Below are positions 5,018 through 21,763 of a stretch of 40,617 nt of DNA, one piece after another. The notes under the pieces are model-generated. The model searched no databases. It saw only the letters and a program-made list of their open reading frames with translations, and was not told where the DNA came from. The stretch is taken from positions 1-40,617 of the forward strand of contig JAZDDW010000027.1 of NCBI GenBank assembly GCA_043809365.1, written 5' to 3'. This stretch comes from a bacterium. GTDB lineage: Bacteria > Patescibacteriota > Microgenomatia > UBA1400 > UBA12108. Numbering within the stretch: position 1 is the stretch's first letter; each line of letters starts with the position of its first letter. The translations under genes were made by a program, and so were the position numbers.

Positions 5018-6763
5018 ATGAAAGTGATCAGAGAGGCGATAAAAAAGACCTTAATGGTCAATGATCAATGGCCAATGGTCGATTTTGTTGTCGAACATCC
5101 CAAGGAGGAGAGTCATGGGGACTACAGTAGCAATGTGGCGCTGATTTTGGCGAAACAGATAGGAAAGAATCCGCGGGAGTTGGCGGAAGCCATTGTAAAG
5201 CAGTGTCACAGTGACACGGTGTCACAGATATGGGAACGGGTGGAGGTGGCGGGAGCGGGATTTATCAATTTTTACCTGAAAAAAGAGTTTTTCCTGGCCG
5301 AAACGAAAAAAGCGATAGAGCCTGGATATGGGAAGAATGAAACTTTGAAGGGCAAAAAAATCATGGTCGAGTATACCGATCCTAACCCCTTCAAAGAAAT
5401 GCATATCGGGCACTTGATGAGTAATACGATTGGGGAGAGTCTGGCGAGGTTGCAAGAAGCCAGTGGGGCGGAAGTGAGGCGGGCGTGTTACCAGGGAGAT
5501 GTAGGGTTGCACGTAGCCAAGGCGATTTGGGGATGGCAGCGGAAAATGGACCAGGAGGGTAAAACGCTGGCTGACTTTAAGGGTCGGACCCTTAAAGTGA
5601 AGGCGAATTATCTGGGGCAGGCGTACGCCTACGGAGCCACAAAATACGAAACCGACGAAACGGCGAAATCAGAAATGAACGCCATGAACAAAGTGATTTA
5701 TGACAAGTCGGATGAAACGATAGATGAGTTGTACCAGGCTGGAAGGGAGTGGAGCCTAGAATATTTTGAGAGCATATACCTCCGGTTGGGGACCAAATTT
5801 GACGAGTATTTTTTTGAGAGCGAGGCGGGACCAGTGGGGCTCAAAGTAGTTGAGGAAGGTTTAGCAAAGAAGGTACTGGAAATAGGGGATGATGGGGCGG
5901 TGGTGTACAGAGGAGAGAAGGATGGACTTCATACTAGAGTATTTCGTAACAAACTGGGACTGCCGACATACGAGGCCAAAGATTTGGGGCTTGCCAAGAC
6001 GAAGTATGAAAGATACAAATATGATTTTTCCTATAACGTGACGGGGAACGAGATCACGGAATATTTCAAAGTGGTGTTGCGAGTGATGGAACAACTTTAT
6101 CCAGATTTGCGGGCGAAAACAACGCATATGCCCCACGGGATGATGAGGCTCACAACGGGCAAGATGAGCTCGCGAACAGGGAAGGTCGTGACGGGAGAAG
6201 GGCTCTTGAATGAGCTAAAAGTGGTGGTACTAACCAAGATGGGAGGGCGCGAGATAGGGGATAAAGATAAAGTGGCAGATATGATTGCGGTGGGAGCGCT
6301 CAAGTATAGTGTGCTCAAGCAGGCGATCGGGGGAAATATCGTCTATGAACCAGAGAAGATGACGAACCTGGAGGGAGACACGGGACCGTATCTGCAGTAT
6401 ACATTCGCAAGATGCTCGAGCGTCTTGCGAAAATCACAAATCTCAAACCCGCCTGCCGGACGGGCAGGTTCTCAAATTCTCAAATTGGGAGCATTACAAA
6501 GTTACGAACCTTGTAATACGGAAGAGCTGGCGATTTTGCGCTGGATTTATCGATATCCAGAAGTGGTATCCGAAGCTGGAGAAAAGATGGCCCCGCACCT
6601 CTTGGCTACGTACTTGTTTGAGTTGGCGCAAAGATTTAATACTTTTTACAATCAACACCAAATTGTGGGGGATGAAGGGCGGATATTGTTGACGAGTGCG
6701 GTGGCAAATGTGCTAAAGAGTGGACTGGGGTTGCTCGGGATCCAGGCTCCGGAGGAGATGTAA
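5018..6763 (+). CDS. argS: Arginine--tRNA ligase
   Basis: HGDYSSNVA, PNPFKEMHIGH (HIGH), KMSSRTG and GDTGPYLQYTFAR. Confidence 0.97.
   Translation: MKVIREAIKKTLMVNDQWPMVDFVVEHPKEESHGDYSSNVALILAKQIGKNPRELAEAIVKQCHSDTVSQIWERVEVAGAGFINFYLKKEFFLAETKKAIEPGYGKNETLKGKKIMVEYTDPNPFKEMHIGHLMSNTIGESLARLQEASGAEVRRACYQGDVGLHVAKAIWGWQRKMDQEGKTLADFKGRTLKVKANYLGQAYAYGATKYETDETAKSEMNAMNKVIYDKSDETIDELYQAGREWSLEYFESIYLRLGTKFDEYFFESEAGPVGLKVVEEGLAKKVLEIGDDGAVVYRGEKDGLHTRVFRNKLGLPTYEAKDLGLAKTKYERYKYDFSYNVTGNEITEYFKVVLRVMEQLYPDLRAKTTHMPHGMMRLTTGKMSSRTGKVVTGEGLLNELKVVVLTKMGGREIGDKDKVADMIAVGALKYSVLKQAIGGNIVYEPEKMTNLEGDTGPYLQYTFARCSSVLRKSQISNPPAGRAGSQILKLGALQSYEPCNTEELAILRWIYRYPEVVSEAGEKMAPHLLATYLFELAQRFNTFYNQHQIVGDEGRILLTSAVANVLKSGLGLLGIQAPEEM
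5053..5080 (+). repeat. AATGGYC heptamer tandem repeat x4, inside argS
   Basis: aatggtc aatgatc aatggcc aatggtc; same family at 19776-19808. Confidence 0.85.
5201..5227 (+). repeat. CAGTGWCA octamer tandem repeat x3, inside argS
   Basis: cagtgtca cagtgaca cggtgtca cag, encoding QCHSDTVS; near-identical copy at 20082-20105. Confidence 0.88.
5574..5598. repeat. REP-like palindrome (RAYT-associated family), inside argS
   Basis: ACTTTAAGGGTC-G-GACCCTTAAAGT with perfect 12-bp arms; the outer arms match the RAYT-flanking palindromes. Confidence 0.88.
6431..6486 (+). repeat. AAAT(T)CTC tandem repeat with a nested 21-nt CCTGCC-family element (6448-6468), inside argS
   Basis: aaatcac aaatctc aaa[cccgcctgccggacgggcagg]ttctc aaattctc aaatt. 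Confidence 0.9.
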
Positions 6764-6765
6764 TT

Positions 6766-7521
6766 TTAGATTTTGCTTTTGAGAAATTCTCCAAAATTAG
6801 TTATTCGTTTACTATCTGAAAGGTTTAATAGGAAAGGGGCGACATCTCTGGCAAGATCAGATAAATTAAGAGTATCCACATACTTGATGAGTTTACGGAG
6901 TTGATCTTTGAGAGAAACTTCCGCGACTGTTTGTAAGTACTCTATATCTGGTTCGGTCAGACCCCACAGATAAGTGACGTCGTAAAGATCGCGACCTTTG
7001 GGACGCTTGCGCTCACCAATAGTCAGCAGTTTTTTGGATAATATTGTACTGGCAGGAGCGACTTTGATGGTCTCAAAGACCCCGTATTTGTTGAGGATGT
7101 GAGGTGTGGATTGGAATGATTGACAGGTAGTGGCGTCGATTTTGATGAGGAGTTTTTCTTCGCTGTATCCCGAAATTCCAAACGATTTGAGGACGTGAGG
7201 GAATTTGAGGTAGCAGTGATAAGTACCCTTGTGAACTAGGCGAGATTCGATCACAAATCCCTTGGCGGTCATGTCAATGATTGTATTTTTCAGTAATTCA
7301 TCAGAGGCGTCAAGCTTGGAGGTGTCAAAATCTAGATCTTGCGAGAAGCGAATGCCTCCGTAGCAGATGCGGATGGCAGTACCGCCAATAAAAGAGAAAA
7401 ATTCACTATTATTTTGCGAAAAAAGACTGGATAGCAGCTCGTGCTGGTAGTATTCGGTCAAGATATTTTTGGTAATACGCGAGGCGGTTGTATACGACAA
7501 AATCTGTTTAAGCGTGAGCAT
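6766..7521 (-). CDS. AbiEii-family nucleotidyltransferase toxin (type IV TA)
   Basis: FIGGTAIRICYGGIRFSQDLDFD and KGRDLYD; overlaps the upstream antitoxin gene. Confidence 0.88.
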   Translation of the reverse strand: MLTLKQILSYTTASRITKNILTEYYQHELLSSLFSQNNSEFFSFIGGTAIRICYGGIRFSQDLDFDTSKLDASDELLKNTIIDMTAKGFVIESRLVHKGTYHCYLKFPHVLKSFGISGYSEEKLLIKIDATTCQSFQSTPHILNKYGVFETIKVAPASTILSKKLLTIGERKRPKGRDLYDVTYLWGLTEPDIEYLQTVAEVSLKDQLRKLIKYVDTLNLSDLARDVAPFLLNLSDSKRITNFGEFLKSKI

Positions 7522-8107
7522 ACATTTCCTCCAGTAATCTGATCAAATAATCCAGGCGCTTGTGTTGAAAGATGGCTAGGTAGGATTGGAGTTTGGGCCA
7601 ATCTATATTTTCGAGATTGAGACGGAGCTCTGCGAGATCTTTGGAGTTTTTGATACTGGGGGTTAGGTAGAAATAATCGAGCAAAGCTTTTTCGCCATCG
7701 GCCAGATTGTAGGGAAGGGGGTGATCTTGGATGTAGGTATAGCCAAAAAATAGCTGAGGGGGGAGGTGCTGGTAAGTGAAGTTACCTTGGGCAAGTTGAT
7801 ATGAGCGGGTGCCTTTGGAGGTTATAGATGTGGCGGTAAAGACTGCTTCGGGGATAATGCCATGATGTGAGAGCGCAAAGGAGAGGGAGAGATAGCTGGG
7901 AGTGACGAGACGGCAGGCAATCATGGCGGAAGAGAGCTCGGGGAGAGAGTCGGAGTAGGCATATAGGCCTCCGCGTAGCTTGGTGAGATAGCCTTTGGCT
8001 TGCCAGGAAGTTAGTTGGGAAGGGGTGTAGCCAGCCCCGAGATTTTTGAGGGTTTGAGAGGTGAAGATCGGGGGCGTGACGAGTTTTCTAAACTCAATGT
8101 ATTTCAT
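7508..8107 (-). CDS. AbiEi-family antitoxin / transcriptional regulator
   Basis: N-terminal wHTH (KLRGGLY), PSYLSLSFALSHHGIIPE and EKALLDYFY. Confidence 0.85.
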   Translation of the reverse strand: MKYIEFRKLVTPPIFTSQTLKNLGAGYTPSQLTSWQAKGYLTKLRGGLYAYSDSLPELSSAMIACRLVTPSYLSLSFALSHHGIIPEAVFTATSITSKGTRSYQLAQGNFTYQHLPPQLFFGYTYIQDHPLPYNLADGEKALLDYFYLTPSIKNSKDLAELRLNLENIDWPKLQSYLAIFQHKRLDYLIRLLEEMYAHA

Positions 8108-8139
8108 GTATTTATAAAAAAATATAAATGTATGAAATA
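8100..8139. promoter_or_regulatory. 17-bp imperfect inverted repeat over the abiEi start; probable autoregulatory operator
   Basis: TATTTCATGTATTTATA-N6-TATAAATGTATGAAATA (2 mismatches). AbiEi proteins are known to bind inverted repeats in their own promoter. Confidence 0.6.
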
Positions 8140-8247
8140 AGTGTGGCAGGTTGAGGGGAGTTTGTCAAGTTGGCAGGTGTGAGAAAATAGGGGCATGGGA
8201 GCGGAAGATTATTTTGTGTTGTTGCAGGTGGGGTGAAACCTTGAAAA

Positions 8248-8676
8248 TTAAGCCCAGGGGTATTTAAGATTAGCGCCAAAGAGGAGTGAGGCCAAGAGAA
8301 TTTGGGAACGATCTTCGGGGAGGGTGTCTTCGCGGGTGAGGCGCCGTGCCATAAAAAGGGGAGAAGGGAAAGAGGCGAATTGAGACTGGATGTGCATATA
8401 GAGATCAGTAAAAGCGGTGAGTTCGGCGTCGGAGAGAGGATGAACGACTTGAGGTTGCTGATCGGGAAAGGAAAGCGGGCGGCGGGTGCGGCGGCCGTCG
8501 TGATCGAGAGTGGCGACATAAAGTCGCCGGTTGACAGTGTCAAGTGGGAACGAACCCGCGCAGTAGTGGAGGAGGGCGTGGGGTGGGGCAAGGGGAAGAA
8601 TGGTGTCTTTAACAAAGGGATCGAGCTCGGTTTCTACCCATTTGATTGCTTCGGGACTGATGGCCTGATATACCAT
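8248..8676 (-). CDS. Hypothetical protein
   Basis: ORF with TATAAT 6 nt upstream of ATG 8676. Confidence 0.55.
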   Translation of the reverse strand: MVYQAISPEAIKWVETELDPFVKDTILPLAPPHALLHYCAGSFPLDTVNRRLYVATLDHDGRRTRRPLSFPDQQPQVVHPLSDAELTAFTDLYMHIQSQFASFPSPLFMARRLTREDTLPEDRSQILLASLLFGANLKYPWA

Positions 8677-8722
8677 GGGTGAATTATAGCGGATATTGGG
8701 GTAGATAGCTTGTTTACTTACT

Positions 8723-8760
8723 GAACCCGTGACTTTGATGTGACTCTCCGTCACGGGTTC
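8723..8760. terminator. Stem-loop downstream of the 8780-9215 cassette
   Basis: GAACCCGTGAC-N16-GTCACGGGTTC, a perfect 11-bp stem with no clear U-tract. Confidence 0.4.
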
Positions 8761-8779
8761 GACTTACAGTCAGCTTGCG

Positions 8780-9001
8780 TTAAGGAGCGAAATCGTACGA
8801 TGTTCCGATGGGGACGAGTGCCTCGTTGGCATCAGCGCCAGAGATGATCATCACTGGAACGTGCGTTGCGCTTGCGCGCTCACGCGTGATGACGATGGCG
8901 CCTTCCGCCAACTCAATTGGTCTCTGACCATCGAGTGAGACTGCTTTCGCGCCTTTCGGAAGAACTGCGCGTGTTTTGGGGGCAGCAAACTGGAGTTGCA
9001 T
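8780..9001 (-). CDS. Small hypothetical protein (73 aa)
   Basis: ATG lies 1 nt after the upstream gene's stop, suggesting translational coupling. Confidence 0.55.
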   Translation of the reverse strand: MQLQFAAPKTRAVLPKGAKAVSLDGQRPIELAEGAIVITRERASATHVPVMIISGADANEALVPIGTSYDFAP

Positions 9002-9002
9002 G

Positions 9003-9810: not shown

Positions 9811-9860
9811 TGTAAAGGGGGAGGCATAGTTTTGTCAATAGGAAAAAGATATGGGGTAGG

Positions 9861-9889: not shown

Positions 9890-9895
9890 AGAAAT

Positions 9896-10504
9896 GTGAT
9901 GAATAGTGGTAGGAAAATTACCAGTAAAAAGAATAAATTGGTCGAGTTAGCCAAGTGGGGGGGAGTGGTGTTTACGGCACAGGATTTAGCCGTGATCTGG
10001 GGATATACAGATGAGCGGAAGTTGTTTGAAACGATAAAATACTATGTTCGCCGAAAAGAGATGTTCGCGATTTCGAGAGGGTTGTATGCAGGAAAAGATT
10101 ATTGCGAGAAGGAGATTAGAGGTAATACTACTTTGCAGTACCAGATAGCCAACAAGCTAATTCCCAACTCGTACGTTTCGCTATACACAGTATTAAAGAG
10201 TGAGGGCGTGATCGACCAATATTATGATGGCGTTTATTCGGTGGCAGGAAGGAAAGCGAGTAGAGTGGTGCGGGGTGTCAAGTTTGAGTACCGGAGGGTA
10301 AGGGGGAGAATACTGTGGAGTGATTGGGGGGTTAACAAAGGAAATGGAGCGCGGGTGGCGAGCTTGGAGCGGGCAGTGCTTGATACCTGGTATTGTGAGC
10401 CAGACTGGGAACTAGGGCGGGTGGAGAAAGTGGATGTGCTAAAACTAAAGGAAGGAGCTAAATTGTATGGGGGGAAGGTCATGCGGAGGGTAAAAGAATG
10501 TTAA
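9896..10504 (+). CDS. AbiEi-family antitoxin
   Basis: ISRGLY, NSYVSLYTVLKSEGVIDQ and ASLERAVLDTWY. Confidence 0.82.
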   Translation: MMNSGRKITSKKNKLVELAKWGGVVFTAQDLAVIWGYTDERKLFETIKYYVRRKEMFAISRGLYAGKDYCEKEIRGNTTLQYQIANKLIPNSYVSLYTVLKSEGVIDQYYDGVYSVAGRKASRVVRGVKFEYRRVRGRILWSDWGVNKGNGARVASLERAVLDTWYCEPDWELGRVEKVDVLKLKEGAKLYGGKVMRRVKEC

Positions 10505-11178
10505 ACATTGAAACGCACAGACAGCAGTTAAGTAGGATCCTCCTGGCGCTGATCAGTGATAAAATGCTGGCGGCAAGGCTAGGATTTAAGGGGGGGACGG
10601 CACTATATTTTTTTGAAGAATTACCGCGTTTTTCGACTGATTTGGATTTTGACTTGATCGGAGAAACGGATCCGACACTGGAGAAAACAATCAGGTCGAT
10701 TGTGGCGGAGTATTTGACCATCGTGGACGAAAAAACCAAGCGTTTCACCTGGTTTTGGCAGGGGAGTTATGGGAAGGGAGAGGCAAAGATTAAGGTAGAA
10801 GTTAACACGCGCAAATATCCCAATTATTATGAAACGAGAGACTGGCGAGGTTATGGAGTTAAGGTCATGGTGAAAGAAGACATGCTGGCGCACAAGCTGT
10901 GTGCGATAACGGATCGAAAAAAGTTGCAAAATCGAGATCTGTACGACGCGTGGTGGATGCTAAAGCGGGGTTGGGAAGCGAATGAGGAGATAATCCAGTT
11001 GCGAACTGACATGAAGTTGAAGGCATATTGGAAAATATTGCTCGCGAAATTGCGAGCGTTACCAGTGAAATATGACGTACTAGCGGGGTTGGGGGAGGTA
11101 ATGAGTCAGAGTCAAAAAGATTGGGTGAAGGCGAAATTGCGAACGAGTTTGGAGCTAGAGTTGGCGAGCAGACTATGA
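10498..11178 (+). CDS. AbiEii-family nucleotidyltransferase toxin
   Basis: FKGGTALYFFEELPRFSTDLDFD, AHKLCA and NRDLYD. Confidence 0.88.
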   Translation: MLNIETHRQQLSRILLALISDKMLAARLGFKGGTALYFFEELPRFSTDLDFDLIGETDPTLEKTIRSIVAEYLTIVDEKTKRFTWFWQGSYGKGEAKIKVEVNTRKYPNYYETRDWRGYGVKVMVKEDMLAHKLCAITDRKKLQNRDLYDAWWMLKRGWEANEEIIQLRTDMKLKAYWKILLAKLRALPVKYDVLAGLGEVMSQSQKDWVKAKLRTSLELELASRL

Positions 11179-11741: not shown

Positions 11742-11757
11742 GATATGGTAAGATACG

Positions 11758-11836
11758 GGGCTATTAGCCTGCCTGTCGGCAGACAGGCTTATTTGGTAGA
11801 GCACCGCACCTGCCTGCCGGCAGGCAGGTTCGCATT
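11758..11836 (+). pseudogene. 5' half of an outer tRNA-Ala(CGC), interrupted by two 20-nt palindromes
   Basis: Removing 11768-11787 and 11809-11828 gives GGGCTAT TA GCTT ATTTGGTA GAGC A CCGCA TTCGCAT. Confidence 0.8.
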
Positions 11837-11841
11837 AAAAA

Positions 11842-12078
11842 ATGTACTTTGTTTATATTCTCAAAAATTCTGAGAATTTCCTCTACAAGGGAATTACAGA
11901 TAATCTGGAACGACGTATTAGTCAGCATAATCATAACCAGTCGGCTGGTACTAGGGGTAAGGGGCCATGGAAATTGGTCTATAGTGAAATTCGTGCTAGC
12001 AGGTCTCTGGCAAGAATACGAGAAAAATATCTGAAATCTGGTGCGGGGAGAGAATTCCTTAAGTCGGTGATAAAATAA
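11842..12078 (+). CDS. Stand-alone GIY-YIG nuclease (UPF0213/Slx1-like, 78 aa)
   Basis: YFVYIL...YKGIT.NLERRISQHN...PWKLVYSE...REKYLKSGAGR. Confidence 0.9.
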   Translation: MYFVYILKNSENFLYKGITDNLERRISQHNHNQSAGTRGKGPWKLVYSEIRASRSLARIREKYLKSGAGREFLKSVIK

Positions 12079-12088: not shown

Positions 12089-12159
12089 GGGCTCGTAGTA
12101 TAGTGGGAGTACGGTACATTCGCATTGTACAGACGGGGGTCCGATTCCCCCCGAGTCCA
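12089..12159 (+). tRNA. tRNA-Ala(CGC), intact inner copy
   Basis: Cloverleaf: acceptor GGGCTCG/CGAGTCC with G3:U70, anticodon arm GTACA-TTCGCAT-TGTAC, T arm GGGGG/CCCCC. Confidence 0.92.
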
Positions 12160-12178
12160 CCTAGGCGTGTGATATGAT

Positions 12179-12283
12179 CGCATTCGCACCTGCCAAGGGC
12201 AGACAGACCTGCCTGCCGGCAGGCAGGTTGTAGATAGGGCGGGGTCTGCCTACGGCAGATAAATTCGAAACCGCCATGGTCCA
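12179..12283 (+). pseudogene. 3' half of the outer tRNA-Ala(CGC), interrupted by hairpin insertions
   Basis: Removing 12189-12227 and 12243-12263 gives CGCA TTCGCAT TGTAG ATAG GGCGG TTCGAAA CCGCC ATGGTCC A. ATGGTCC pairs with GGGCTAT at 11758, including G3:U70. Confidence 0.78.
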
Positions 12284-12553: not shown

Positions 12554-13812
12554 AGTTTGATGTCAGCTATACCAAGTTGAAGAATGGGGTGAGAGTGCTC
12601 ACGGTGCCCATGGTGGGAGTGGAGTCGGTGACGGCGATGATCCTGGTGAAAACGGGATCAAGGAATGAAACTCTGGAGCAAGCGGGGATCTCCCACGTTT
12701 TGGAGCATATGGTGTTTAAGGGGACAAAAAAATATCCCAGTCCCCTGCATATTGCGGAGGCGGTTGATTCGATTGGGGCAGAGCAGAATGCGTTTACGAG
12801 CAAAGAATATACGGGATACTACATTACCAGTGCGGCGAAACACTTGGGACTAACCTTGGATATTCAGGCTGAGATGTTGACCAAGCCTCTGTTGCCCCAG
12901 GCAGACTTGGAGCGCGAGCGGGAGGTGATTGTGGAAGAAATCAATATGTACGAGGACCAGCCCATGGCTATGGCGGGAGAGTTATTTGAAAACTTGATGT
13001 ATGACGGATCCTCGATGGGAAGACTGATTATTGGGACAAAGGAAACGGTGCGGGGAACGAATGCAACTGATTTGCGAAAGTACATGGGAGAGTGGTACAG
13101 GGGGGGGAATGTGTTGGTGGTGGTGGCAGGAAAAATCTCAAATCTTAAACCCGCCTGCCGGACGGGCAGGTTCTCAAATTCTCAAATTGAGGAGAAATTT
13201 GGGGAAATGAGTGAAGGGCATATTTCTGGATATACAACGAGGGCTAGGTATGGAAAGTCGGAGGCGAGACACCAGAAAAAGAAAACCGAGCAGGCTCATT
13301 TTGTGATGGGAGTACCCGCGCTTCCCATGACAGATCCGAGGCGCTACGCCTTGTCGATCGCACAGGTCGTGCTGGGGGGGACGATGAGTAGCCGACTCTT
13401 TAACGAAATCAGGGAAAAACGGGGACTAGCTTATTATGTGCGAGCTGATTTGGATACTGCATATGACTGCGGATATTTGGCGGTGAGGTCGGGAGTCAAA
13501 CTGACAAAGCTGGGGGAGGCGATGGAAGTAGTCAAAGCCGAGATGCTGAGGTTGGGGGAAACCATCACCGTGGCGGAACTTAAGCGAGGACAGGACTACC
13601 TCCTAGGGAAGATGCCATTAACACTTGAGGATTCGATGGGGGTGGCCCAGTTTTTTGGGACTCGAACCTTGATACTTGACGAGGTTCGTCAGCCAGATGA
13701 GGTGGAGCGAGCCATCAAAGCGGTGAAAATAGGGGACGTAAGGGAAGTGCTGGAGGAATTGGTGAAGGAAGAATTAATCAGATCGGTCGTGGTAGGACCA
13801 AAAGCAAGCTAA
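12550..13812 (+). CDS. M16 family (insulinase/pitrilysin) zinc peptidase
   Basis: HVLEHMVFKGT (HxxEH), NAFTS and SRLFNEIREKRGLAY. Confidence 0.93.
   Translation: MKFDVSYTKLKNGVRVLTVPMVGVESVTAMILVKTGSRNETLEQAGISHVLEHMVFKGTKKYPSPLHIAEAVDSIGAEQNAFTSKEYTGYYITSAAKHLGLTLDIQAEMLTKPLLPQADLEREREVIVEEINMYEDQPMAMAGELFENLMYDGSSMGRLIIGTKETVRGTNATDLRKYMGEWYRGGNVLVVVAGKISNLKPACRTGRFSNSQIEEKFGEMSEGHISGYTTRARYGKSEARHQKKKTEQAHFVMGVPALPMTDPRRYALSIAQVVLGGTMSSRLFNEIREKRGLAYYVRADLDTAYDCGYLAVRSGVKLTKLGEAMEVVKAEMLRLGETITVAELKRGQDYLLGKMPLTLEDSMGVAQFFGTRTLILDEVRQPDEVERAIKAVKIGDVREVLEELVKEELIRSVVVGPKAS
13133..13188 (+). repeat. AAAT(T)CTC tandem repeat with a nested 21-nt CCTGCC-family element (13150-13170), inside the peptidase
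   Basis: Identical 21-mer and junction to the argS copy, read in a different frame (PACRTGR). Confidence 0.9.
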
Positions 13813-14442: not shown

Positions 14443-14506
14443 TGCCCCCACCAAGAATTGTCAGCCCAAGGCTGATCCGCCTAGGGCGGAAACTTGGACC
14501 TGAGAG
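14443..14506 (-). pseudogene. 3' half of an outer tRNA-Arg with a 30-nt double-hairpin insertion in the T loop
   Basis: Removing 14461-14490 (tcagcc-caa-ggctga plus tccgcc-tag-ggcgga) gives CTCTC AGGT CCAAG TTCAATT CTTGG TGGGGGC A. Confidence 0.75.
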
Positions 14507-14578
14507 TGTCCCCGGAAAGAATTGAACTTTCATCACAGGTTTAGGAAACCTGGGCTCTATCCGTTGAGCTACGAGGAC
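14507..14578 (-). tRNA. tRNA-Arg(CCT), intact inner copy
   Basis: Acceptor GTCCTCG/CGGGGAC, anticodon arm CAGGT-TTCCTAA-ACCTG, T arm GAAAG-TTCAATT-CTTTC. Confidence 0.93.
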
Positions 14579-14593
14579 TTTATTGTATTATAA

Positions 14594-14651
14594 CTCGGAA
14601 ACCTGCCTGCCGGCAGGCAGGCCTCTGTTCTATCCGTTAAACTATGGGAGC
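14594..14651 (-). pseudogene. 5' half of an outer tRNA-Arg(CCG), interrupted by the 20-nt palindrome (14602-14621)
   Basis: GCTCCCA TA GTTT AACGGATA GAAC A GAGG[20 nt]T TTCCGAG. GCTCCCA pairs with TGGGGGC at 14444-14450. Confidence 0.78.
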
Positions 14652-14675
14652 GTTAGGGCTATTTTAACTTATTTT

Positions 14676-14703
14676 AGTTTGATCGTGTAGAGATTGGGGA
14701 TGG
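14676..14703. repeat. 28-bp direct repeat, copy 1 (orphan PEGA-gene 3' end)
   Basis: AGTTTGATCGTGTAGAGATTGGGGATGG, identical to 15885-15912. Confidence 0.92.
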
Positions 14704-14723
14704 GTGATTTTGTGGAAGTATGT

Positions 14724-14762
14724 TCCATAAAATTTGACAAATTTATGGATTTGAGATAAGGT
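14724..14762 (+). promoter_or_regulatory. Promoter TTGACA-17-TAAGGT with an inverted repeat over the -35 box
   Basis: TCCATAAAATTT-GAC-AAATTTATGGA; the ATG is 6 nt after the -10 box. Confidence 0.6.
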
Positions 14763-14768
14763 GGAGAC

Positions 14769-15899
14769 ATGCAAATACCCAGGATTTATGATGACATCGA
14801 GAAATTACTCGCGCCGGGGAAAGTGCTGGTGATATATGGCCCAAGGCAGGTGGGTAAAACGACCTTGGTCAAAAACTACCTGGAGAAAACCCAGTGGAAG
14901 TATCGACTAGATCAGGGTGACAACGTAGATTTACAGGAGACATTGGGATCGAGATCATTCTCCAAGGTATTACCAGTTGTAGAAGGATTGGAGTTGTATG
15001 TGATTGATGAGGCGCAAAAAATACCCCACGTTGGCGAGGTTTTGAAAATTTTGGTTGATCAACGGCCCGATTTGCGGATTATTGCAACGGGGTCTTCGTC
15101 TTTTGAGCTCGCGGACCAGGTGGGAGAACCACTGACAGGTCGTAAGCAGACGATTACCCTGTATCCTTTGGCACAAATGGAGCTGGTGCGAAAGTGGAAT
15201 CGGCATGAATTGGCGCAGAGGAAGACAGATTTTTTGGTATATGGAAGCTATCCGCGAGTTGTGATGGAAGAGAGGAAGAGCCAGAAGGAAGGGTTGCTGG
15301 CAGAGCTCGTGGGCTCGTATTTGTTTAAAGATGTTTTGTCGATGGAAAGAATCAAAGGAGCCAAGGTCCTGAAACAGATTTTACAATTACTGGCATATCA
15401 AATTGGATCGACGGTTTCGTACAACGAGATTGCGAACAAGATCTTGATCGACGTCAAGACAGTCGCGAGGTACTTGGATCTACTCGAGAAAACATTTGTC
15501 ATCACCTCGCTCCCAGGGTTTGGGCGCAATTTGCGAGAGGAAGTCACGAGCCAGAAGAAATATTATTTTTGGGATAACGGAGTTCGTAATGGGATTATTC
15601 AGCAGTTTAATGATTTGGACGTGAGGAATGATGTGGGGCAACTTTGGGAAAACTTTATTATGATCGAGCGAATTAAAAAACGAAGTTATAGTGCAATTCA
15701 AGCGAATATCTATTTTTGGCGGACACATACGCAAAAAGAAATTGATTTGGTGGAGGAGAGGGGAGGGAAATTGTTTGGATATGAAATTAAGTGGGGTGAG
15801 GATCAGGCGAAGCACAAGTCAGCCTGGCTCGCACAATATCCAGGCGAAGCTGAACTCTTGGTGATTAATCAGAAGAATTACTTGAGTTTGATCGTGTAG
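14769..15899 (+). CDS. AAA_14 family ATPase with DUF4143/PD-(D/E)xK-like C-terminus
   Basis: GPRQVGKT, IDEAQ, ATGSS, LTGR, WENF and EIDLV...YEIKW. Confidence 0.9.
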   Translation: MQIPRIYDDIEKLLAPGKVLVIYGPRQVGKTTLVKNYLEKTQWKYRLDQGDNVDLQETLGSRSFSKVLPVVEGLELYVIDEAQKIPHVGEVLKILVDQRPDLRIIATGSSSFELADQVGEPLTGRKQTITLYPLAQMELVRKWNRHELAQRKTDFLVYGSYPRVVMEERKSQKEGLLAELVGSYLFKDVLSMERIKGAKVLKQILQLLAYQIGSTVSYNEIANKILIDVKTVARYLDLLEKTFVITSLPGFGRNLREEVTSQKKYYFWDNGVRNGIIQQFNDLDVRNDVGQLWENFIMIERIKKRSYSAIQANIYFWRTHTQKEIDLVEERGGKLFGYEIKWGEDQAKHKSAWLAQYPGEAELLVINQKNYLSLIV

Positions 15900-15912
15900 A
15901 GATTGGGGATGG
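15885..15912. repeat. 28-bp direct repeat, copy 2
   Basis: Identical to 14676-14703; it contains the ATPase gene's stop codon. Confidence 0.92.
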
Positions 15913-15935
15913 TGCCTTCGGAAAACTGAATGCGG

Positions 15936-15955
15936 CCTGCCTGCCGGCAGGCAGG
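15936..15955. repeat. 20-bp palindrome CCTGCCTGCCGGCAGGCAGG
   Basis: Perfect palindrome, identical at 11809, 12208 and 14602. Confidence 0.95.
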
Positions 15956-15961
15956 GTGATG

Positions 15962-17368
15962 TCATTTTAGTTTTATTGTGTATAAATTTGGCAGAGCTCC
16001 ATCAGAAAAAGCAATCTTAGTGATTATTTTACTTCCGTCTGGCCAGGGATAGATAATCGAGGGGTCCATGGGACCACCGTAGATGGTGACGCGATTAGTC
16101 CCGTCGTACTCCATGATTTCTATACCTGTACTAGTGCCAAGAAGGAGATGGGAAGAGTCGGGATACCACTGGATTCCACCTACGAAGATGGGGGAGTACT
16201 GGGCGTTAAAGAGTGCAATCGACTCTACCGGAGTAACATTTTTTTGGAGGGTACGAAAAGCCGAGGGAGAGGAGATGAGCTCGGCGGGGAGGGGAACTTG
16301 GAAATTGGAGAGCAACATGAGCTTGATCGGCCCCCTCAGACCGCTTCGCGTCTCGGGGCATTTCTCAGGCGCTTTCGCGCTTGATGTGCAGGGTTTGGGG
16401 AGTGATCCCTCAGAGATTAAAAAGTTTTTGTCTTCTTTGAGATCGTAGACATACCAAAATCCAGGTTCGGTACTACGAGATTGGATTTGGGTAGAGGAAG
16501 AGGGGAGAGCGGGGACTAATCCGTCAGGGAGCGTAAAGGCGGAGGTAGCTTGATATAAGAGTCGGTCAGCATCGGGAGAAAAATAAAGATTGGTGGCCGA
16601 GGTCGTGGCAACACCTGCCATAAAGTCGGGGAGTTTGAGGAGTTGGACTCGCTCTTCCCGCGCCAGTTCTAGCTCCCATTCGGAGAGAATTTGGGGAAGG
16701 CGGACGGTCACGTCTTTGAGGACGGTTAAATCATTAAAGCGGGTGGTATCGAGGAGGATGTGGGCGCTACTTCCGCCTGAAGGCGAGACAGGACTAAAGG
16801 CAACCAGCAACTCGCTGCCGTTGGGGCTCCAGGTATAATGGCTAGTAGTATAGTCGAAATTGAGGTCGGAGCGGGCAATTTGGCGGGCGGTTTTGTTGAG
16901 GGAAATCGGAGAAGAGTTTAGGTCTTGAATATAAAGTCCGTTCTTGGTCATGGCGCTAGCGGAGGCGACGGTAAAGGCCAGCTTGGTTCCGTCTGGGGAA
17001 GGAACGGTGTTTTGTGAGCCAGTATAGGTTAAAGGGACTAGTTCGGGGGTGGCGGGGAAAAGTTGGGCGTTGGTTGCGGTGACTAGTTCGGCGGTAATCG
17101 TGAGGAGTTTGCTCCAGGAGTGATAACCATCTTTTTTGATTGTTACCTGGTACTCTCCTGGATCGAGGTTGAGGGTATTATCGGTGGCGGTTGTAAGTTT
17201 ATCGTTGATATAAACCTCCCCAGCGGTGGGGAAGGAGTTGGCGGAGAGGAGACCGGTGCCCTTGATCGTGCCGGTCGTGGTGGGACGATAACCCTGGGCG
17301 TAGCGGATCATCAAAATGGTACCCCCGATGACAAATGTTAAGGTGGCGACAAAGATAAGTAGACGCAT
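15962..17368 (-). CDS. PEGA-domain membrane-anchored protein with TolB-like beta-propeller repeats
   Basis: N-terminal TM helix, PEGA motif LDPGEYQVTIKKDGYHSW and WSPNG/SPDG/WYPD repeats. Start chosen at the ATG 6 nt after TATAAT. Confidence 0.8.
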   Translation of the reverse strand: MRLLIFVATLTFVIGGTILMIRYAQGYRPTTTGTIKGTGLLSANSFPTAGEVYINDKLTTATDNTLNLDPGEYQVTIKKDGYHSWSKLLTITAELVTATNAQLFPATPELVPLTYTGSQNTVPSPDGTKLAFTVASASAMTKNGLYIQDLNSSPISLNKTARQIARSDLNFDYTTSHYTWSPNGSELLVAFSPVSPSGGSSAHILLDTTRFNDLTVLKDVTVRLPQILSEWELELAREERVQLLKLPDFMAGVATTSATNLYFSPDADRLLYQATSAFTLPDGLVPALPSSSTQIQSRSTEPGFWYVYDLKEDKNFLISEGSLPKPCTSSAKAPEKCPETRSGLRGPIKLMLLSNFQVPLPAELISSPSAFRTLQKNVTPVESIALFNAQYSPIFVGGIQWYPDSSHLLLGTSTGIEIMEYDGTNRVTIYGGPMDPSIIYPWPDGSKIITKIAFSDGALPNLYTIKLK

Positions 17369-17375
17369 AGGGATA

Positions 17376-18284
17376 TTATAGCGCAAGGGCGGCGGATGGG
17401 GTGGATTCAAGAATTAAGTAGTTAAAGGTTGAGTTTTGGGAAACGGGAAAATCCGTGTGGAGGGTGAATGACCCTTGAGCGGGAGCAATCCAGTATTTTT
17501 TCGCGGGAGCGTAGTCGGTCGTAAAGTTGGCGGTGACGAGGGTAGTGGGAGAAATCGCTGGATGGGAAACCGAGATTTGATTTTGACCTTTGTTGAGTGT
17601 GGCTGATCCAGAGATGAGGGAGGCATTGTCTAGTTGGAGAGTAGAGACTGGTTTTACCTGGGCTTCTTGGAGCATTTCTGTCGAGAGATGGTTTTGGAAT
17701 TTGGCTAGGAGGTCATCAACTCGAGGGTCCAGAGTGCTAGTTGCGACCCCTTGTACCTGAGGAGATATGGGGGTGGAGACTCGATTAAAAAGAAAGTGGT
17801 AAAGAGTGAGGAGGGTGAGGGTAAGGAGAAGATTGGCGAGAATAACTGTGGGGACTGTCTTTTCTCGAGTATCCTGTAGGGTCTGACCTTCCCCGCCTTG
17901 GTATCTGCGGGGTTGGGCACTTCCTTCAAGGTCAGACCCTTTTTTCAGCTCGTCCAGTTTTTCAAGTAGTCGGGCTTTGGGATAGTAAGTATTGCCCGAA
18001 GTAATAAAGGGATGAATTTTTCCCTCGTTTTCCCAACGATCGATAGTGCTAGGGGAAACACCGCAGAGAGTGGCGGCTTGAGAAATGCTCAATAAGTCTT
18101 TTTGTTCCCTGATGACATTGTGTTTGAGGGCGTCGAGGATTTGGAGATCATCGAGGGAGTAGCGACGTTGATTGCCGAGGGTGCGACTCCCGGAGAAACG
18201 ACCAGCCTCTTCCCACCTTCTTAGAGTTTTGTCGGAGAGGTTGAGACGGGTTGCGACTTCATTGATAGTGTAGAGCTTGTCCAT
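17376..18284 (-). CDS. Tandem MerR/Xis-type HTH + TM helix + C-terminal beta domain
   Basis: YTINEVA...TLRRWE...RTLGNQRRYS, a second HTH (ISQAA...TIDRWE), and the hydrophobic segment VILANLLLTLTLLTLYHFLF. Confidence 0.75.
   Translation of the reverse strand: MDKLYTINEVATRLNLSDKTLRRWEEAGRFSGSRTLGNQRRYSLDDLQILDALKHNVIREQKDLLSISQAATLCGVSPSTIDRWENEGKIHPFITSGNTYYPKARLLEKLDELKKGSDLEGSAQPRRYQGGEGQTLQDTREKTVPTVILANLLLTLTLLTLYHFLFNRVSTPISPQVQGVATSTLDPRVDDLLAKFQNHLSTEMLQEAQVKPVSTLQLDNASLISGSATLNKGQNQISVSHPAISPTTLVTANFTTDYAPAKKYWIAPAQGSFTLHTDFPVSQNSTFNYLILESTPSAALAL
17878..17940. repeat. REP doublet AGGGTCTGACCTT...AAGGTCAGACCCT, in-frame in the MerR-like gene
   Basis: 13-bp inverted repeat with an internal CCCCGC/GCGGGG hairpin; same arms at 32799-32876. 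Confidence 0.8.
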
Positions 18285-18452
18285 AACTTGGTCATCCAGA
18301 TATATGTCTAGGTTTGGAGGGTATGTTTTTAGTGTAGATTGTTGCCAGATGATTGTCAAATCGAATAATTAACGCAAATATTAGGTCAGGCGTGCGGGAA
18401 TAGATACTTTAGTGCGGGAAATGATTGGGGGCGTGAAAAGGTATATTCCAAT

Positions 18453-18479
18453 GAGGACAGTCCCTTCGGGACTGTCCTC
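18453..18479. repeat. REP-like hairpin GAGGACAGTCCC-TTC-GGGACTGTCCTC upstream of mreB
   Basis: Perfect 12-bp stem; each arm is itself quasi-palindromic. Confidence 0.65.
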
Positions 18480-18505
18480 TTATAAGACGTGATAAAATGT
18501 AAATT

Positions 18506-19507
18506 ATGAAGTTTAATAAACGATTGGGGGTTGATCTGGGGACAGCCAACTCTCTCGTGTGGGTAGTGGGACAGGGACTGGTACTAAATGAACCTACGGT
18601 GGTGGCGGTATCGGTCGAAGACATGAAGGTAGTGGCGGTAGGGAACGAAGCCAAGATAATGTTGGGGCGTACCCCCGGGAATATTATCGCAAGCCGCCCC
18701 ATGAAGGATGGAGTGATCGCGGACTATGCCATGACTGAAGCAATACTTAAATACTTTATTCAGCGGGCCGTAGGGAAGACTGTAGTGTTTCGACCAGAGG
18801 TGATGATTTGTGTGCCGGCAGGGTGTACTCAAGTCGAGAGACGAGCAGCACTGGATGCTACTTATGCCGCTGGAGCTAAACAGGTATATCTGATTGATGA
18901 ACCATTAGCGGCGGCGATCGGAGCTGGCGTACCCATTGCAGAGGCGTCGGGGAATATGATCTTGGATATCGGTGGAGGTTCCGCAGAGACAGCAGTGATA
19001 GCGCTTGGGGGAGTAGTAGTACACAAAAGTGTGCGAGTAGGAGGAACAAAACTAGATGAGGCGATTGTGGATTATGCCAGGCGTAATCACGCACTAATCA
19101 TTGGTGATCAGACCGCAGAATCGGTCAAGATCAAGCTTGGTTCAGCGACAAAACTGCAGCGAGAGGAGAGTATGCCCGTCAAAGGTCGGGATACGGTCAC
19201 TGGATTACCGCGAACGATTACCCTAACTTCAGGCGATGTTAATCAAGCGTTAACTAAACCACTTTCCCAGATCATTGGAGTGATTAAAGCAGTTTTGGAA
19301 GAGACTCCACCCGAATTATCTTCGGATATTATTGACCGGGGGATCGTCATGAGTGGGGGGACCTCTCTATTGCGCAATCTTGACGCTCTAATTACTCGAG
19401 AAGTGGGGGTACCGGCATATATTGCGGAAGACCCGTTGCTTTGTGTGGTCAAGGGGACGGGAAGGGCAATAGAGAATATTGATACTTACCGAAGAGCACT
19501 TAGGTGA
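18506..19507 (+). CDS. mreB: Rod shape-determining protein MreB
   Basis: DLGTAN, RPMKDGVIAD, EPLAAAIGAG and DIGGG. Confidence 0.96.
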   Translation: MKFNKRLGVDLGTANSLVWVVGQGLVLNEPTVVAVSVEDMKVVAVGNEAKIMLGRTPGNIIASRPMKDGVIADYAMTEAILKYFIQRAVGKTVVFRPEVMICVPAGCTQVERRAALDATYAAGAKQVYLIDEPLAAAIGAGVPIAEASGNMILDIGGGSAETAVIALGGVVVHKSVRVGGTKLDEAIVDYARRNHALIIGDQTAESVKIKLGSATKLQREESMPVKGRDTVTGLPRTITLTSGDVNQALTKPLSQIIGVIKAVLEETPPELSSDIIDRGIVMSGGTSLLRNLDALITREVGVPAYIAEDPLLCVVKGTGRAIENIDTYRRALR

Positions 19508-19529
19508 GATAGTCTGGTATGATTGTGAT

Positions 19530-20651
19530 ATGGTGATTGGAATTGATTGCTCGAGAGCGTTTAGTGAGCACAAAACAGGTACGGAGAACTACTCCTACCA
19601 CCTTGTCAAACACTTGTTACGAGTGCCAGATTCAAAACAACACAAGTTTGTGCTGTTTATCCGTCCAAATGCTGTGATTGAAAGGGAAATAGTTGGATAT
19701 AGCAATGTAATCATCAAAGAAATCAAGTTGAAGTATTTGTGGACGCAAGTTGGATTGGCCTGGGAGACATGGCAGCAATGGCCAATGGCCAATGGTCTAT
19801 GGTCAATGTTGGATGTGTTGTGGATTCCGGCGCATACTTTGCCAGTTTTGCGTAAACCTGGGATTAGGACAATTGTGACTATTCATGGTCTGGAATATCA
19901 GTGGTTGCCAGAGTACAAAAACTGGCTCCAAAAATGGTACCTACCGTTATCCACGATTTACGCGACGAAAAAAGCAACAAAACTCATTGCAGTGTCGGAA
20001 TTTACCAAGAAACAGCTGGAAAAAGAGCTACATACTAGCTCAAATAAGATCAAAGTGATATATGAGGGAGTGGATTGCGCGCAGTGTCACAGTGACACAG
20101 TGTCACTGCAAAAGTATGGAGTGGAAAGTAAAAAATACGCCTTGTTTGTGGGGACGGTTCAGCCAAGAAAGAACTTGGTAGCTCTGGTTGAGGCATTTGC
20201 TAAGACTCAAATAGAGAAATTGGTGATTGCGGGTGGAGTAGGATGGATGGCAGAGGATATTTTGCGGGCTCCCCTCAAGTATGGAGTGCAGGATAGAATC
20301 GTCTTTACGGGCCGAGTGAGCGAGGAGGAATTAGAGAGTTTGTATCTGGGAGCGGGGGTATATGTACAACCGTCCGTGACAGAGGGGTTTGGGTTGCCGG
20401 TCCTCGAAGCAATGGCGATGGGGATTCCAGTGATTAGTAGCGATGGGGGGGCACTAAGGGAAGTAGTGGGGGAAGCGGGAGTAATAATCAAATTGGGGAA
20501 CAGATTTGTAGAGCGGCTTGCAATAGCGATAAAGCGGGTAATAGACGATAAAAAATTACATAATACACTAATATCTATGGGATATGAGAGAGTAAAGGAA
20601 TTTAGTTGGGAGAAAACGGCACAACAAACACTCAATGTCCTTACGGGGTAG
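19530..20651 (+). CDS. GT4 (group 1) glycosyltransferase
   Basis: VGTVQPRKN and EGFGLPVLEAMAMG; contains in-frame tandem repeats at 19776-19808 and 20082-20105. Confidence 0.92.
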   Translation: MVIGIDCSRAFSEHKTGTENYSYHLVKHLLRVPDSKQHKFVLFIRPNAVIEREIVGYSNVIIKEIKLKYLWTQVGLAWETWQQWPMANGLWSMLDVLWIPAHTLPVLRKPGIRTIVTIHGLEYQWLPEYKNWLQKWYLPLSTIYATKKATKLIAVSEFTKKQLEKELHTSSNKIKVIYEGVDCAQCHSDTVSLQKYGVESKKYALFVGTVQPRKNLVALVEAFAKTQIEKLVIAGGVGWMAEDILRAPLKYGVQDRIVFTGRVSEEELESLYLGAGVYVQPSVTEGFGLPVLEAMAMGIPVISSDGGALREVVGEAGVIIKLGNRFVERLAIAIKRVIDDKKLHNTLISMGYERVKEFSWEKTAQQTLNVLTG

Positions 20652-20670
20652 GGATATAATTAATTATTTG

Positions 20671-20705
20671 AATCATAAATCATAAATTCTTAAATTCTCA
20701 AATTT
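20671..20705 (+). repeat. Intergenic AAATCAT/AAATTCTC tandem repeat with no nested element
   Basis: aatcat aaatcat aaattctt aaattctc aaattt. Confidence 0.75.
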
Positions 20706-20932
20706 AAGATATTATGTATGTATAAATAATTTGTACAAAATGGCAAAAAAGGGGGAAAAGCTTTAGAAATATTTGGTCTTAGAGTAATATTTGGAGAGAT
20801 ACTGGCCAATAACTGATTGGTGTTTTTGTCAATATATGTTATAAGTTATATATTAACTAATATTTTCTGTTGATTTTTGCACAAAATAGATAGAGTTGGT
20901 ATGATGAATGTTGGTTTAACAAGGAGGGATCG

Positions 20933-21763
20933 TTGCAAAAAGCTAAAGTATCGTCTAAACATAGTCAAGTTAGGTCGCAAAGAAGCAATGAAAAGGTGGA
21001 TAAACCCGTAGAAATCTTCGGTGTGACCATCTTTGGCACTCACAGACAAGAAGTGCTAAAGAAAATTGGGCTCCAGAGGAAAGATATGTTGCATGTGGCA
21101 ACGGTCAATCCCGAGTATGTGATGGAGGCGAGGCACAGCCCTGAATTTAGAGAAATTTTAACACATTGTTTGACGGTTGCTGATGGGCATGGAGTGGTGT
21201 GGGCATATCAAATCATAAATCACAAATTCCCTGCCTTGCCGGCAGGCAGGTCAAATTCTCAAATTGAAAGGATAAGTGGCGCCAGGCTGGTGGAGGAGAT
21301 CCTGAAGAGAGCTAACAAGAGGGGGGAGAAAGTGTTTTTGTTGGGAGCCAAGCCGGGAATTGCGGAGAAGGCGGCAACCGAGATGGCTAGACGATATCCG
21401 GGGGCGAGATATGCCTGGTTTGAGGGAGCGAGGACTGTGGCGGTAGAGGCGAGTGAGGAGGCGAGTATGACGATAGCCAAGATCAATGGGTTTGAGCCTG
21501 ACTACCTCCTCGTTGCGTATGGCTCTCCCTGGCAAGATATCTGGATAGAAGAGAATAGATCATATCTGCGGACTAGAGTAGCGATGGGGGTGGGGGGGGT
21601 ACTCGATGAGTGGGCAGGGGTGGTGGCAATTTGCCCCAAATGGTTAGATCGGCTAGGACTTAAGTGGGCATGGCGAGTAATCCATGAACCATGGAGGCTT
21701 TCAAGAGTACTAAAAGTGTTCCAATTTGCTACTCTGGTCTTGTACCATAAGTTAGTAGATTGA
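20933..21763 (+). CDS. WecB/TagA/CpsF family glycosyltransferase
   Basis: TVNPE, ADGHG, VAYGSPWQD, GVGG and EPWR. Start uncertain. Repeat insertion at 21210-21265 with a 21-nt palindrome at 21230-21250. Confidence 0.9.
   Translation: MQKAKVSSKHSQVRSQRSNEKVDKPVEIFGVTIFGTHRQEVLKKIGLQRKDMLHVATVNPEYVMEARHSPEFREILTHCLTVADGHGVVWAYQIINHKFPALPAGRSNSQIERISGARLVEEILKRANKRGEKVFLLGAKPGIAEKAATEMARRYPGARYAWFEGARTVAVEASEEASMTIAKINGFEPDYLLVAYGSPWQDIWIEENRSYLRTRVAMGVGGVLDEWAGVVAICPKWLDRLGLKWAWRVIHEPWRLSRVLKVFQFATLVLYHKLVD

Follow-up and report, generated by a model that had tools for sequence, protein, structure and literature searches.

Ssn proteins are single-domain GIY-YIG nucleases of single-stranded DNA (ssDNA), which cut ssDNA beside the hairpin repeats that flank their own genes (main text of Chenal et al. 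2025, PMC11893778). The element considered here is a perfect 20-base palindrome, CCTGCCTGCCGGCAGGCAGG, that recurs in the window, i.e. the whole 40,617-nt contig JAZDDW010000027.1 (GenBank assembly GCA_043809365.1; Patescibacteriota, Microgenomatia), where it flanks a small GIY-YIG gene. It resembles the Ssn/SRM systems in two respects: the protein is a single-domain GIY-YIG protein (about 80-95 amino acids (aa); here 78 aa), and the nuclease gene is flanked on one or both sides by a dispersed hairpin repeat with many solo copies elsewhere. The differences concern the repeat itself, which is unrelated to the NTS/SRM motif of the ATTCCC-N8-GGGAAT type (compared by eye with the motif in that main text), and its copy number (8-13 per genome vs hundreds for SRM). 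They also concern its setting: the cassette lies here in duplicated tRNA genes, copies are found inside coding sequences (CDSs) and an identical sequence is found across phyla. The main text of PMC11893778 has no occurrence of tRNA, Patescibacteria or Bacteroid, and neither half of the palindrome is found in ten of its supplement files; in one supplement table, Flagellimonas and Winogradskyella genomes appear with what seem to be few SRM matches. SsnA repeats serve merely as a benchmark in the accessible part of bioRxiv 10.64898/2026.09.22.753630. The literature search returned no published description of the palindrome, and the exact 20-mer was not found in any paper.

Other described systems are comparable in part. 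Rickettsia palindromic elements (RPE) are palindromic repeats found in frame in protein genes and translated; they are about 100-150 bp long and restricted to one lineage. The present palindrome is likewise translated in frame, but its unit is 20 bp and it crosses phyla. In fungal mitochondria, mobile GC clusters and double-hairpin elements are GC-rich palindromes of small size, which invade AT-rich spacers and, at times, genes; they differ in being organellar and longer and in having no partner nuclease gene in tRNA genes. Phage tRNA clusters hold free-standing GIY-YIG homing endonuclease genes (T4 SegB). The likeness lies in a small GIY-YIG gene beside tRNA genes; a homing-like duplication of the target sequence is plausible. 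We know of no dispersed hairpin partner of SegB-type genes, and the open reading frame (ORF) found here encodes the catalytic domain only. REP/BIME sequences with their RAYT genes are also short GC-rich dispersed palindromes, with a presumed mobilization in trans in the form of ssDNA hairpins, and the gene is bracketed by repeats. Here the partner is GIY-YIG, not Y1, and the RAYT-like genes of the same genome have other hairpins. Moreover, the palindrome has no conserved flanking tetranucleotide and is not confined to extragenic DNA (15 of the 22 family copies in the source genome are in CDSs). The palindrome-associated elements derived from IS200/IS605 share insertion without duplication, but here a single symmetric hairpin is found, without distinct left and right subterminal hairpins and without a fixed tetra- or pentanucleotide flank. 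GIY-YIG ORFs in non-intron rRNA insertions of the candidate phyla radiation are reported in the accessible text of PMC11270868, where 'palindrom', 'hairpin' and 'tRNA' do not occur.

A discrete hairpin unit and its empty sites

The palindrome is a real, non-chance, discrete 20-bp hairpin unit that is precisely inserted without duplication. The source genome (G000) comprises 818,764 bp in 63 contigs (46% G+C); the window is its contig C27, whose genes are bacterial (F-type ATP synthase, MreB, arginyl-tRNA synthetase (ArgRS)). In the following, G001, G003 etc. are related genomes, C-numbers are contigs and L-numbers are fetched loci. A preliminary description of the window had listed exact copies at 11809, 12208, 14602 and 15936 and a variant at 11768, all in non-coding or dead sequence. 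All five are found there, the last with 2 mismatches, vs 0.00 matches expected (100 dinucleotide-preserving shuffles), and all five are non-coding. In the whole genome, 8 copies are exact and 3 more have 1-2 substitutions; 5 of these 11 are within the window. A search tolerant of insertions and deletions adds forms of 21 nt and 18 nt, giving a family total of 22 copies in the source genome, the doubtful C9:3037 among them.

Empty counterparts of filled sites are found within the genome and in relatives. Without its 20 bases, C43:13195 is identical to the intact tRNA-Pro located 300 nt downstream (30/30 bases across the junction), and C26:11523 is identical to the GTCACTGT-type repeat arrays found elsewhere in the genome (24/24 bases). 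Two tRNA fragments of a relative, G024:C51 (tRNA-His) and G024:C179 (tRNA-Pro), differ from the adjoining intact tRNA solely by 20 bases. For the two tRNA-like hosts of the window, the score of local alignment to the real tRNAs of the genome improves once the palindrome is removed. The Ala fragment (both 20-mers, 11768 and 11809, removed) goes from 36 to 46, with 31/37 bases as in the 5' half of tRNA-Ala(tgc); the Arg fragment goes from 29 to 39. A HIT-family gene (C17) carries the exact 20-mer at the identical nucleotide in the source genome and in G025; 12 of the 14 aligned orthologs are empty. The two filled genes belong to different clades, each supported 100/99, and a single change is allowed by 0/200 bootstrap trees; therefore either the site was hit twice or a short patch was transferred. 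No target-site duplication is found: the junctions checked (C43, C26, G024) are all exact.

Precise insertion without target-site duplication and the restoration of tRNA arms by deletion, both claimed in the preliminary description, are thus borne out. The restoration of tandem-repeat units is confirmed for one copy, located outside the window (C26:11523). A Thr codon said to be restored at 15936 is weak evidence, because its reading frame is a short remnant that opens directly behind a TAA. The partial copy at the very start of the window does match the end of the palindrome over 7 bases, which is suggestive only; none of the other contigs (63 in the genome) ends in a partial copy.

Neither of two known types of insert describes the unit. 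Miniature inverted-repeat transposable elements have terminal inverted repeats around an internal segment, and a target-site duplication; here the whole unit is a single 20-bp palindrome. Introns of tRNA genes (archaeal-type or group I) are excised at the RNA level and interrupt an otherwise complete host tRNA; the hosts in the window are truncated 5' fragments adjoining intact tRNAs. An origin in situ from a CCTG microsatellite was also considered and is unlikely, because the empty tRNA and HIT sites contain no such repeat.

Two observations concern particular hosts. Bases 256-347 of L211 (viral contig) are called by ARAGORN as a complete 92-nt tRNA-Met(cat) with the exact 20-mer in the variable region, like an artificial long variable arm. 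At C26:11478-11590, GTCACTGT octamer repeats form signal-peptide codons of a secreted fn3-domain protein, with the palindrome lodged inside; an 8-nt unit shifts the frame, and the array therefore looks like a phase-variation switch.

The palindrome (at most 1 mismatch) is found in 17 of 41 related genomes, with 1-13 copies each; the reversed control pattern gave 0 matches. In a cross-phylum scan (exact match, one genome per species), the exact 20-mer was found at at least 121 places. According to record titles, carriers include many classes of Patescibacteria, Bacteroidota, Omnitrophota, Planctomycetota, Gammaproteobacteria, Bdellovibrionales, Thermodesulfovibrio and Chloroflexi; Bacteroidota titled as cultured are Winogradskyella echinorum, Flagellimonas yonaguniensis, Longitalea luteola and Flavivirga sp. 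The flanks of these copies are unrelated to each other. Viral contigs hold the 20-mer at 40 places, seven of them on one 29.5-kb contig. A sequencing or assembly artefact (adapter, linker, amplification chimera) might be suspected, given that synthetic linkers look like short perfect palindromes and that a partial copy stands at the start of the window. The probability of an artefact is practically negligible: many unrelated projects have yielded the palindrome, in genomes whose titles name cultured strains as well as in complete chromosomes assembled from metagenomes; copies carry point mutations, mostly transitions; variants in genes are frame-corrected; and sequence runs through the insert without a break.

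A conserved functional site of the host (operator, terminator, processing hairpin) kept by selection, and not inserted, would fit the perfect conservation and the strong hairpin (-10.8 kcal/mol, z -3.4, for the 11809 copy as ssDNA). It would also fit C24:4236, a 20-nt copy that forms the last codons of a TrxB-like gene, ends 8 nt before the start codon of a malic-enzyme gene and supplies a GGAGG-like stretch. This explanation is very improbable. It is contradicted by orthologous sites that are empty in most relatives. Copies are also found in dead tRNA fragments, and those in open frames of the cross-phylum set use all three phases (18, 14 and 11 of 43). The palindrome has no T-run and no fixed position relative to genes.

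The target is loosely defined. The palindrome is preceded by A in 56/126 sites (position -1) and followed by T in 49/126 (position +1), with no fixed flank and no conserved tetranucleotide. One D-arm site, between GGT(T)AGA and GC, was hit in five different tRNA fragments (C43, L037, L058, L238, L240). After removal of the palindrome, the junction is the loop or centre of another hairpin (stem of at least 5) in 25/126 sites vs 88/756 control positions; some of these junctions correspond to palindromes nested within other copies of the palindrome. Repair filler that does not replicate would account for part of this: self-complementary 20-mers derived from existing copies would pair as blunt duplexes and be ligated into double-strand breaks at hairpins, palindrome centres and slippery repeats, the spread being passive and any link with a nuclease incidental. 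The lack of duplication and of a conserved target, the hairpin-located junctions, copies nested in copies (L040, L063), the many sites inside tandem repeats and junction variation in CDS copies (e.g. the extra base in HIT) agree with such filling. The identity of one sequence in many phyla and its excess of about 100-fold beside GIY-YIG genes are left without explanation by this reading; every checkable non-coding junction is exact, and the hairpin enrichment is modest (20% vs 12%). Repair filling is therefore held to be improbable.

The GIY-YIG/tRNA cassette and other candidate partners

The palindrome is read here as a non-autonomous hairpin insertion element, the partner repeat of Ssn-like small (about 80 aa) GIY-YIG nucleases lodged in tRNA genes; the chances for and against this reading are considered about equal. 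The preliminary description had called it an active 20-bp element; such activity is presumptive, and the palindrome is not self-sufficient but linked to GIY-YIG/tRNA cassettes. As in the Ssn systems, the hairpin flanks the nuclease gene: in the window, the 11809 copy lies 13 nt upstream and the 12208 copy lies downstream, past the tRNA. At C43:13195, the palindrome is 18 nt upstream of a GIY-YIG paralog, which is followed by an intact tRNA-Pro. In relatives, it adjoins a GIY-YIG gene at G024:C51, G024:C179, G014:C3 and G015:C13; the last two resemble the window in having a copy on each side of the gene. Of the 68 copies found in the source genome and its relatives, 7 lie at most 60 nt from a GIY-YIG gene, vs a rough expectation of about 0.07. 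A GIY-YIG ORF is found within 150 nt in 5/121 cross-phylum loci (among the matches listed) and within 300 nt in 1/40 viral loci.

The cassette is not restricted to this palindrome. ARAGORN calls a tRNA gene in 18 of the 20 GIY-YIG loci fetched from relatives, several of which are laid out as a tRNA 5' fragment with a hairpin, the ORF and an intact tRNA. A perfect hairpin (stem of at least 6) is found in the 170 nt upstream of the GIY-YIG gene in 18/20 loci, a count made without control; only four of these hairpins are this palindrome. The hairpin is therefore taken as the variable part of a common cassette, CCTGCC...GGCAGG being one widespread version. A further GIY-YIG cassette of the source genome (C2:28150-28240) has a different, 16-nt palindrome, TCCCGACTTGTCGGGA, which replaces the anticodon arm of a duplicated tRNA-Lys fragment; a second copy of TCCCGACTTGTCGGGA is found elsewhere in that genome.

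Alternatively, HUH/Y1 transposases (RAYT-like, IS200/IS605-type) might move the palindrome. It would then be an orphan REP-like hairpin family, found beside GIY-YIG genes only because both use tRNA fragments as sites. As is established for IS200/IS605 and discussed in PMC11893778, Y1 enzymes can both cleave and religate ssDNA hairpins, and their insertions leave no duplication. Five Y1_Tnp genes (about 220-227 aa) are found in the source genome and at least one in each of five genomes examined; the protein encoded by the Y1 gene of the window reaches 46.8 bits against the NCBIfam REP-associated tyrosine transposase (cut-off 80). The palindrome lacks, at the 126 sites, the conserved tetranucleotide that would be expected beside it, and each of the five Y1 genes of the source genome is flanked on both sides by its own distinct palindrome of about 20-28 nt, never by CCTGCC...GGCAGG. 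Mobilization by Y1 enzymes is thus regarded as unlikely.

The Y1 gene of the window (36916-37587, minus strand) is an observation in its own right. This RAYT-like gene, encoding 223 aa, has the 25-nt palindrome ACTTTAAGGGAGACTCCCTTAAAGT on either side, at 36892 and 37612 (region 36892-37636). A third copy of ACTTTAAGGGAGACTCCCTTAAAGT lies in frame inside the gene (37409), and the locus abuts a tRNA-Thr gene (37637-37710). Its layout resembles that of REP/RAYT systems, here in a genome of ultra-small size.

Several points weigh against the GIY-YIG partnership. Most copies are solo: 61/68 in the source genome and its relatives and 116/121 in the cross-phylum set (among the matches listed) are not near a GIY-YIG gene. 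The presence of the palindrome is not associated with that of a small GIY-YIG homolog (15/17 genomes with the palindrome, 20/24 without), and G001 and G005 hold the palindrome with no GIY-YIG homolog at E<=1e-5. The GIY-YIG genes adjacent to the palindrome are just 37-50% identical to the protein of the window, whose closest homolog (54%, G010) is in a genome without the palindrome. The nearest solved relative of this protein is a UPF0213 protein (BH0048, 1zg2, E 1.1e-5), and no family of NCBIfam is matched. To our knowledge, GIY-YIG enzymes cut DNA and do not join it, and the model therefore has to postulate a joining step. An indirect adjacency is conceivable, cassettes and palindrome both favouring, or being tolerated in, dead tRNA fragments. 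Finally, a 20-bp frameshift in an essential gene (TopA, ArgRS) should kill at once, and birth in frame is not explained by a simple model.

Copies inside genes and the AT-rich host repeat

The three 21-nt copies described in CDSs of the window are real and in frame. Those of ArgRS and the M16 peptidase are form B, CCCGCCTGCCGGACGGGCAGG, and that at 21230 is form A, CCTGCCTTGCCGGCAGGCAGG. The host of the latter had been given as wecB; by Pfam it is a Glyco_tran_WecG (WecG/TagA/CpsF) transferase. The strict rule stated with them (20 nt outside genes, 21 nt inside) fails, because four 20-nt cores lie in CDSs: those of the HIT gene, the signal peptide, DprA and the last codons of the TrxB-like gene. 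The non-coding copies of the source genome (6; five in the window and C43) are all 20 nt long. Inside CDSs, the 20-nt cores (3) are in the HIT gene, the signal peptide (within the octamer repeat) and DprA (one mismatch). The 21-nt copies (9) are four of form B, three of form A (WecG/TagA, PD-(D/E)XK nuclease, trigger factor), one in TopA (doubled A) and one in a ComM-like gene (added G); the 18-nt copies (2) are in YqeY and a T2SSE ATPase. All 11 copies of 21 or 18 nt are in Pfam-confirmed or long open frames and represent at least 6 different internal insertions or deletions. No CDS-interior copy breaks the frame, and the net insert is a multiple of three wherever measurable. The claimed +1 frame correction therefore holds for the net length, but the correcting base may lie beside the palindrome and 18-nt forms exist. 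In the HIT gene, the net gain is 21 nt and the extra base lies just downstream of the palindrome. RNA-level excision or bypass was considered and would not be needed, because frames stay open through the insert.

Similar features are found among the matches listed for the cross-phylum set. A frame open over 320 nt is found for 26/116 exact copies, vs 6% of shuffles. The same base on both sides of the palindrome (G..G or C..C, a 21-nt unit) is found for 14/26 open-frame copies vs 19/88 elsewhere (Fisher p 0.0027). Copies in essential genes (TopA, ArgRS) must have been in frame from the start, which implies occasional imprecise events or the copying of already-corrected forms.

All three 21-nt copies of the window are nested in a separate AT-rich repeat of about 35 nt, roughly AATCNCAAATCNNAAATTCTCAAATTCTCAAAT. 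This repeat is G-free and built of units of 7-8 nt (AATCNCA / AAATTCTC); the source genome has 42 copies (nhmmer profile, E<=1e-4), of which 13 are inside long open frames (strict test). The others are mostly intergenic, often immediately 3' of a stop codon and 5' of a GGAG-like stretch. Its orientation follows the sign of the local GC skew in 41/42 copies, and its core pattern is found in 14 of 41 genomes searched, all of the same family. The GC palindrome is held by 5 of the 42 repeats, as four identical forms B and one form A (21230). The position of form B, between ...AAA and TTCTC..., is the same in ArgRS (6448), the M16 peptidase (13150), a TrxB-like gene (C24:4408) and a hydrolase (C63:6034); form A sits 3 nt further into the repeat. 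The insertion sites in ArgRS and M16 are in a hypervariable linker. The palindrome is absent from all aligned orthologs of relatives (0/10 ArgRS, 0/13 M16), and the AT-rich repeat is present without it in the ArgRS ortholog of G009 and the M16 ortholog of G008. These alignments indicate that form B entered pre-existing AT-rich repeats and that three fresh 20+1 events did not occur. As form B is identical and at the same repeat position in all four places, it probably spread among AT-rich repeats by conversion or along with the repeat.

Two observations were made on ArgRS in relatives. The linker that holds form B in the source genome holds other hairpins (ACAAGGTACGGAACCTTGT) in G003, G005 and G007. 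In addition, several ArgRS match in two pieces, with a break near query residue 232 or 410 and uninterrupted frames of 613-739 aa, which suggests further in-frame insertions.

Table 1. Copies of the palindrome and associated features of the window. Positions are in nt from the first base of the window.
Feature	Position	Strand	Context
Possible cut-off palindrome copy	1..7		AGGCAGG, the last 7 bases of the palindrome, at contig start; too short for proof
21-nt form B	6448..6468	+	In frame in ArgRS; nested in AT-rich repeat 6427-6493
tRNA-Ala-like 5' fragment	11754..11835 (approximate limits)	+	Interrupted by two 20-mers (11768, 11809)
Decayed 20-nt copy	11768..11787		2 mismatches, 7-bp hairpin kept; D-arm region of the same tRNA-Ala-like fragment as 11809
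Exact 20-nt palindrome	11809..11828		Between anticodon-stem 5' strand and loop of the tRNA-Ala-like 5' fragment; 13 nt 5' of GIY-YIG start codon
78-aa single-domain GIY-YIG nuclease gene	11842..12078	+	Pfam PF01541, residues 1-66, E 2.5e-16
Intact tRNA-Ala(cgc)	12089..12161	+	Directly 3' of nuclease gene
Exact 20-nt palindrome	12208..12227		47 nt 3' of tRNA-Ala(cgc); brackets nuclease gene and tRNA together with 11809
21-nt form B	13150..13170	+	In frame in M16 peptidase; nested in AT-rich repeat 13126-13192
Exact 20-nt palindrome	14602..14621		Stem/loop junction of duplicated tRNA-Arg 5' fragment
Diverged duplicate of tRNA-Arg(cct) 5' half	14622..14665	-	Intact tRNA at 14506-14578 (-)
Exact 20-nt palindrome	15936..15955		Between stop codon of PEGA-domain ORF and duplicated 35-nt copy of the 3' end of that gene
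AT-rich repeat without palindrome	20668..20709	+	Intergenic; unoccupied host element
21-nt form A (T doubled at position 8)	21230..21250	+	In frame in WecG/TagA-family glycosyltransferase; nested in AT-rich repeat 21202-21271
AT-rich repeat without palindrome	23601..23650	+	In frame inside Dus gene

Further features of the window were noted. Within the duplicated tRNA-Arg fragment, 14622-14655 shares 71% identity with 14549-14582 (repeat D2), and no nuclease ORF is found at this locus. Next to it, an ATPase gene of the AAA_14/DUF4143 type (14769-15899, plus strand) lies between two direct repeats of 35 nt (D1: 14669-14703 and 15878-15912; 94% identical). A third D1 copy (15962-15996; 74% identical) is the true 3' end of the minus-strand PEGA-domain ORF. 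The region 14669-15996 looks like the product of serial insertion with duplication of the end of this ORF. Two genes of AbiEii-family nucleotidyltransferase toxins lie 3 kb apart (6766-7521 and 10498-11178). GC skew is very strong: every 2-kb bin of the window falls between +0.15 and +0.37, and single contigs of the source genome reach about ±0.4.

Proposed mechanism and significance

In the proposed mechanism, the cassette would consist of a duplicated tRNA 5' fragment with a hairpin, the nuclease ORF and the intact tRNA. By analogy with Ssn nucleases and their repeats, the nuclease would recognise the hairpin in ssDNA. Its cuts would release or copy the 20-mer, and ligation or repair by the host would insert this 20-mer at further exposed hairpins, repeats and breaks. 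If only exact copies are recognised and propagated, the sequence would stay identical while old copies decay. Most insertions would be of exactly 20 bp, and within genes only net multiples of three would survive, by one extra base in or beside the palindrome, by a 2-base loss or by a change in a neighbouring repeat. Gene copies would add peptides (e.g. LPAGRQ, PACRQAG, CLPAGR) in tolerant linkers. Form B would then have passed from one AT-rich repeat to another, probably through short-patch conversion or carried with the repeat. Current mobility, the responsible enzyme and the joining step are what we infer from these data.

A broader statement is put forward tentatively, the balance of probability being somewhat against it. 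The 20-bp palindrome would be an entire mobile element, the smallest known, moved in trans by Ssn-like GIY-YIG ssDNA nucleases of tRNA genes. It would pass between at least 8 bacterial phyla, possibly phage-borne, would insert without footprint into single-stranded hairpins and would repeatedly add loops of 6-7 residues to essential proteins.

If the palindrome is mobile, 20 bp would be a new lower size limit for a transposable unit, and a hairpin alone could cross phyla when the matching nuclease travels along. The cassettes provide candidate nuclease/hairpin pairs in addition to those published for Ssn, and such pairs are of interest as tools for ssDNA. Annotation is affected as well, since the inserts give rise to pseudo-tRNAs and may break assemblies or mimic frameshifts or artefacts. 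In addition, the palindrome supplies essential proteins with small in-frame peptide insertions (in the source genome: ArgRS, TopA, DprA, trigger factor, M16 peptidase).

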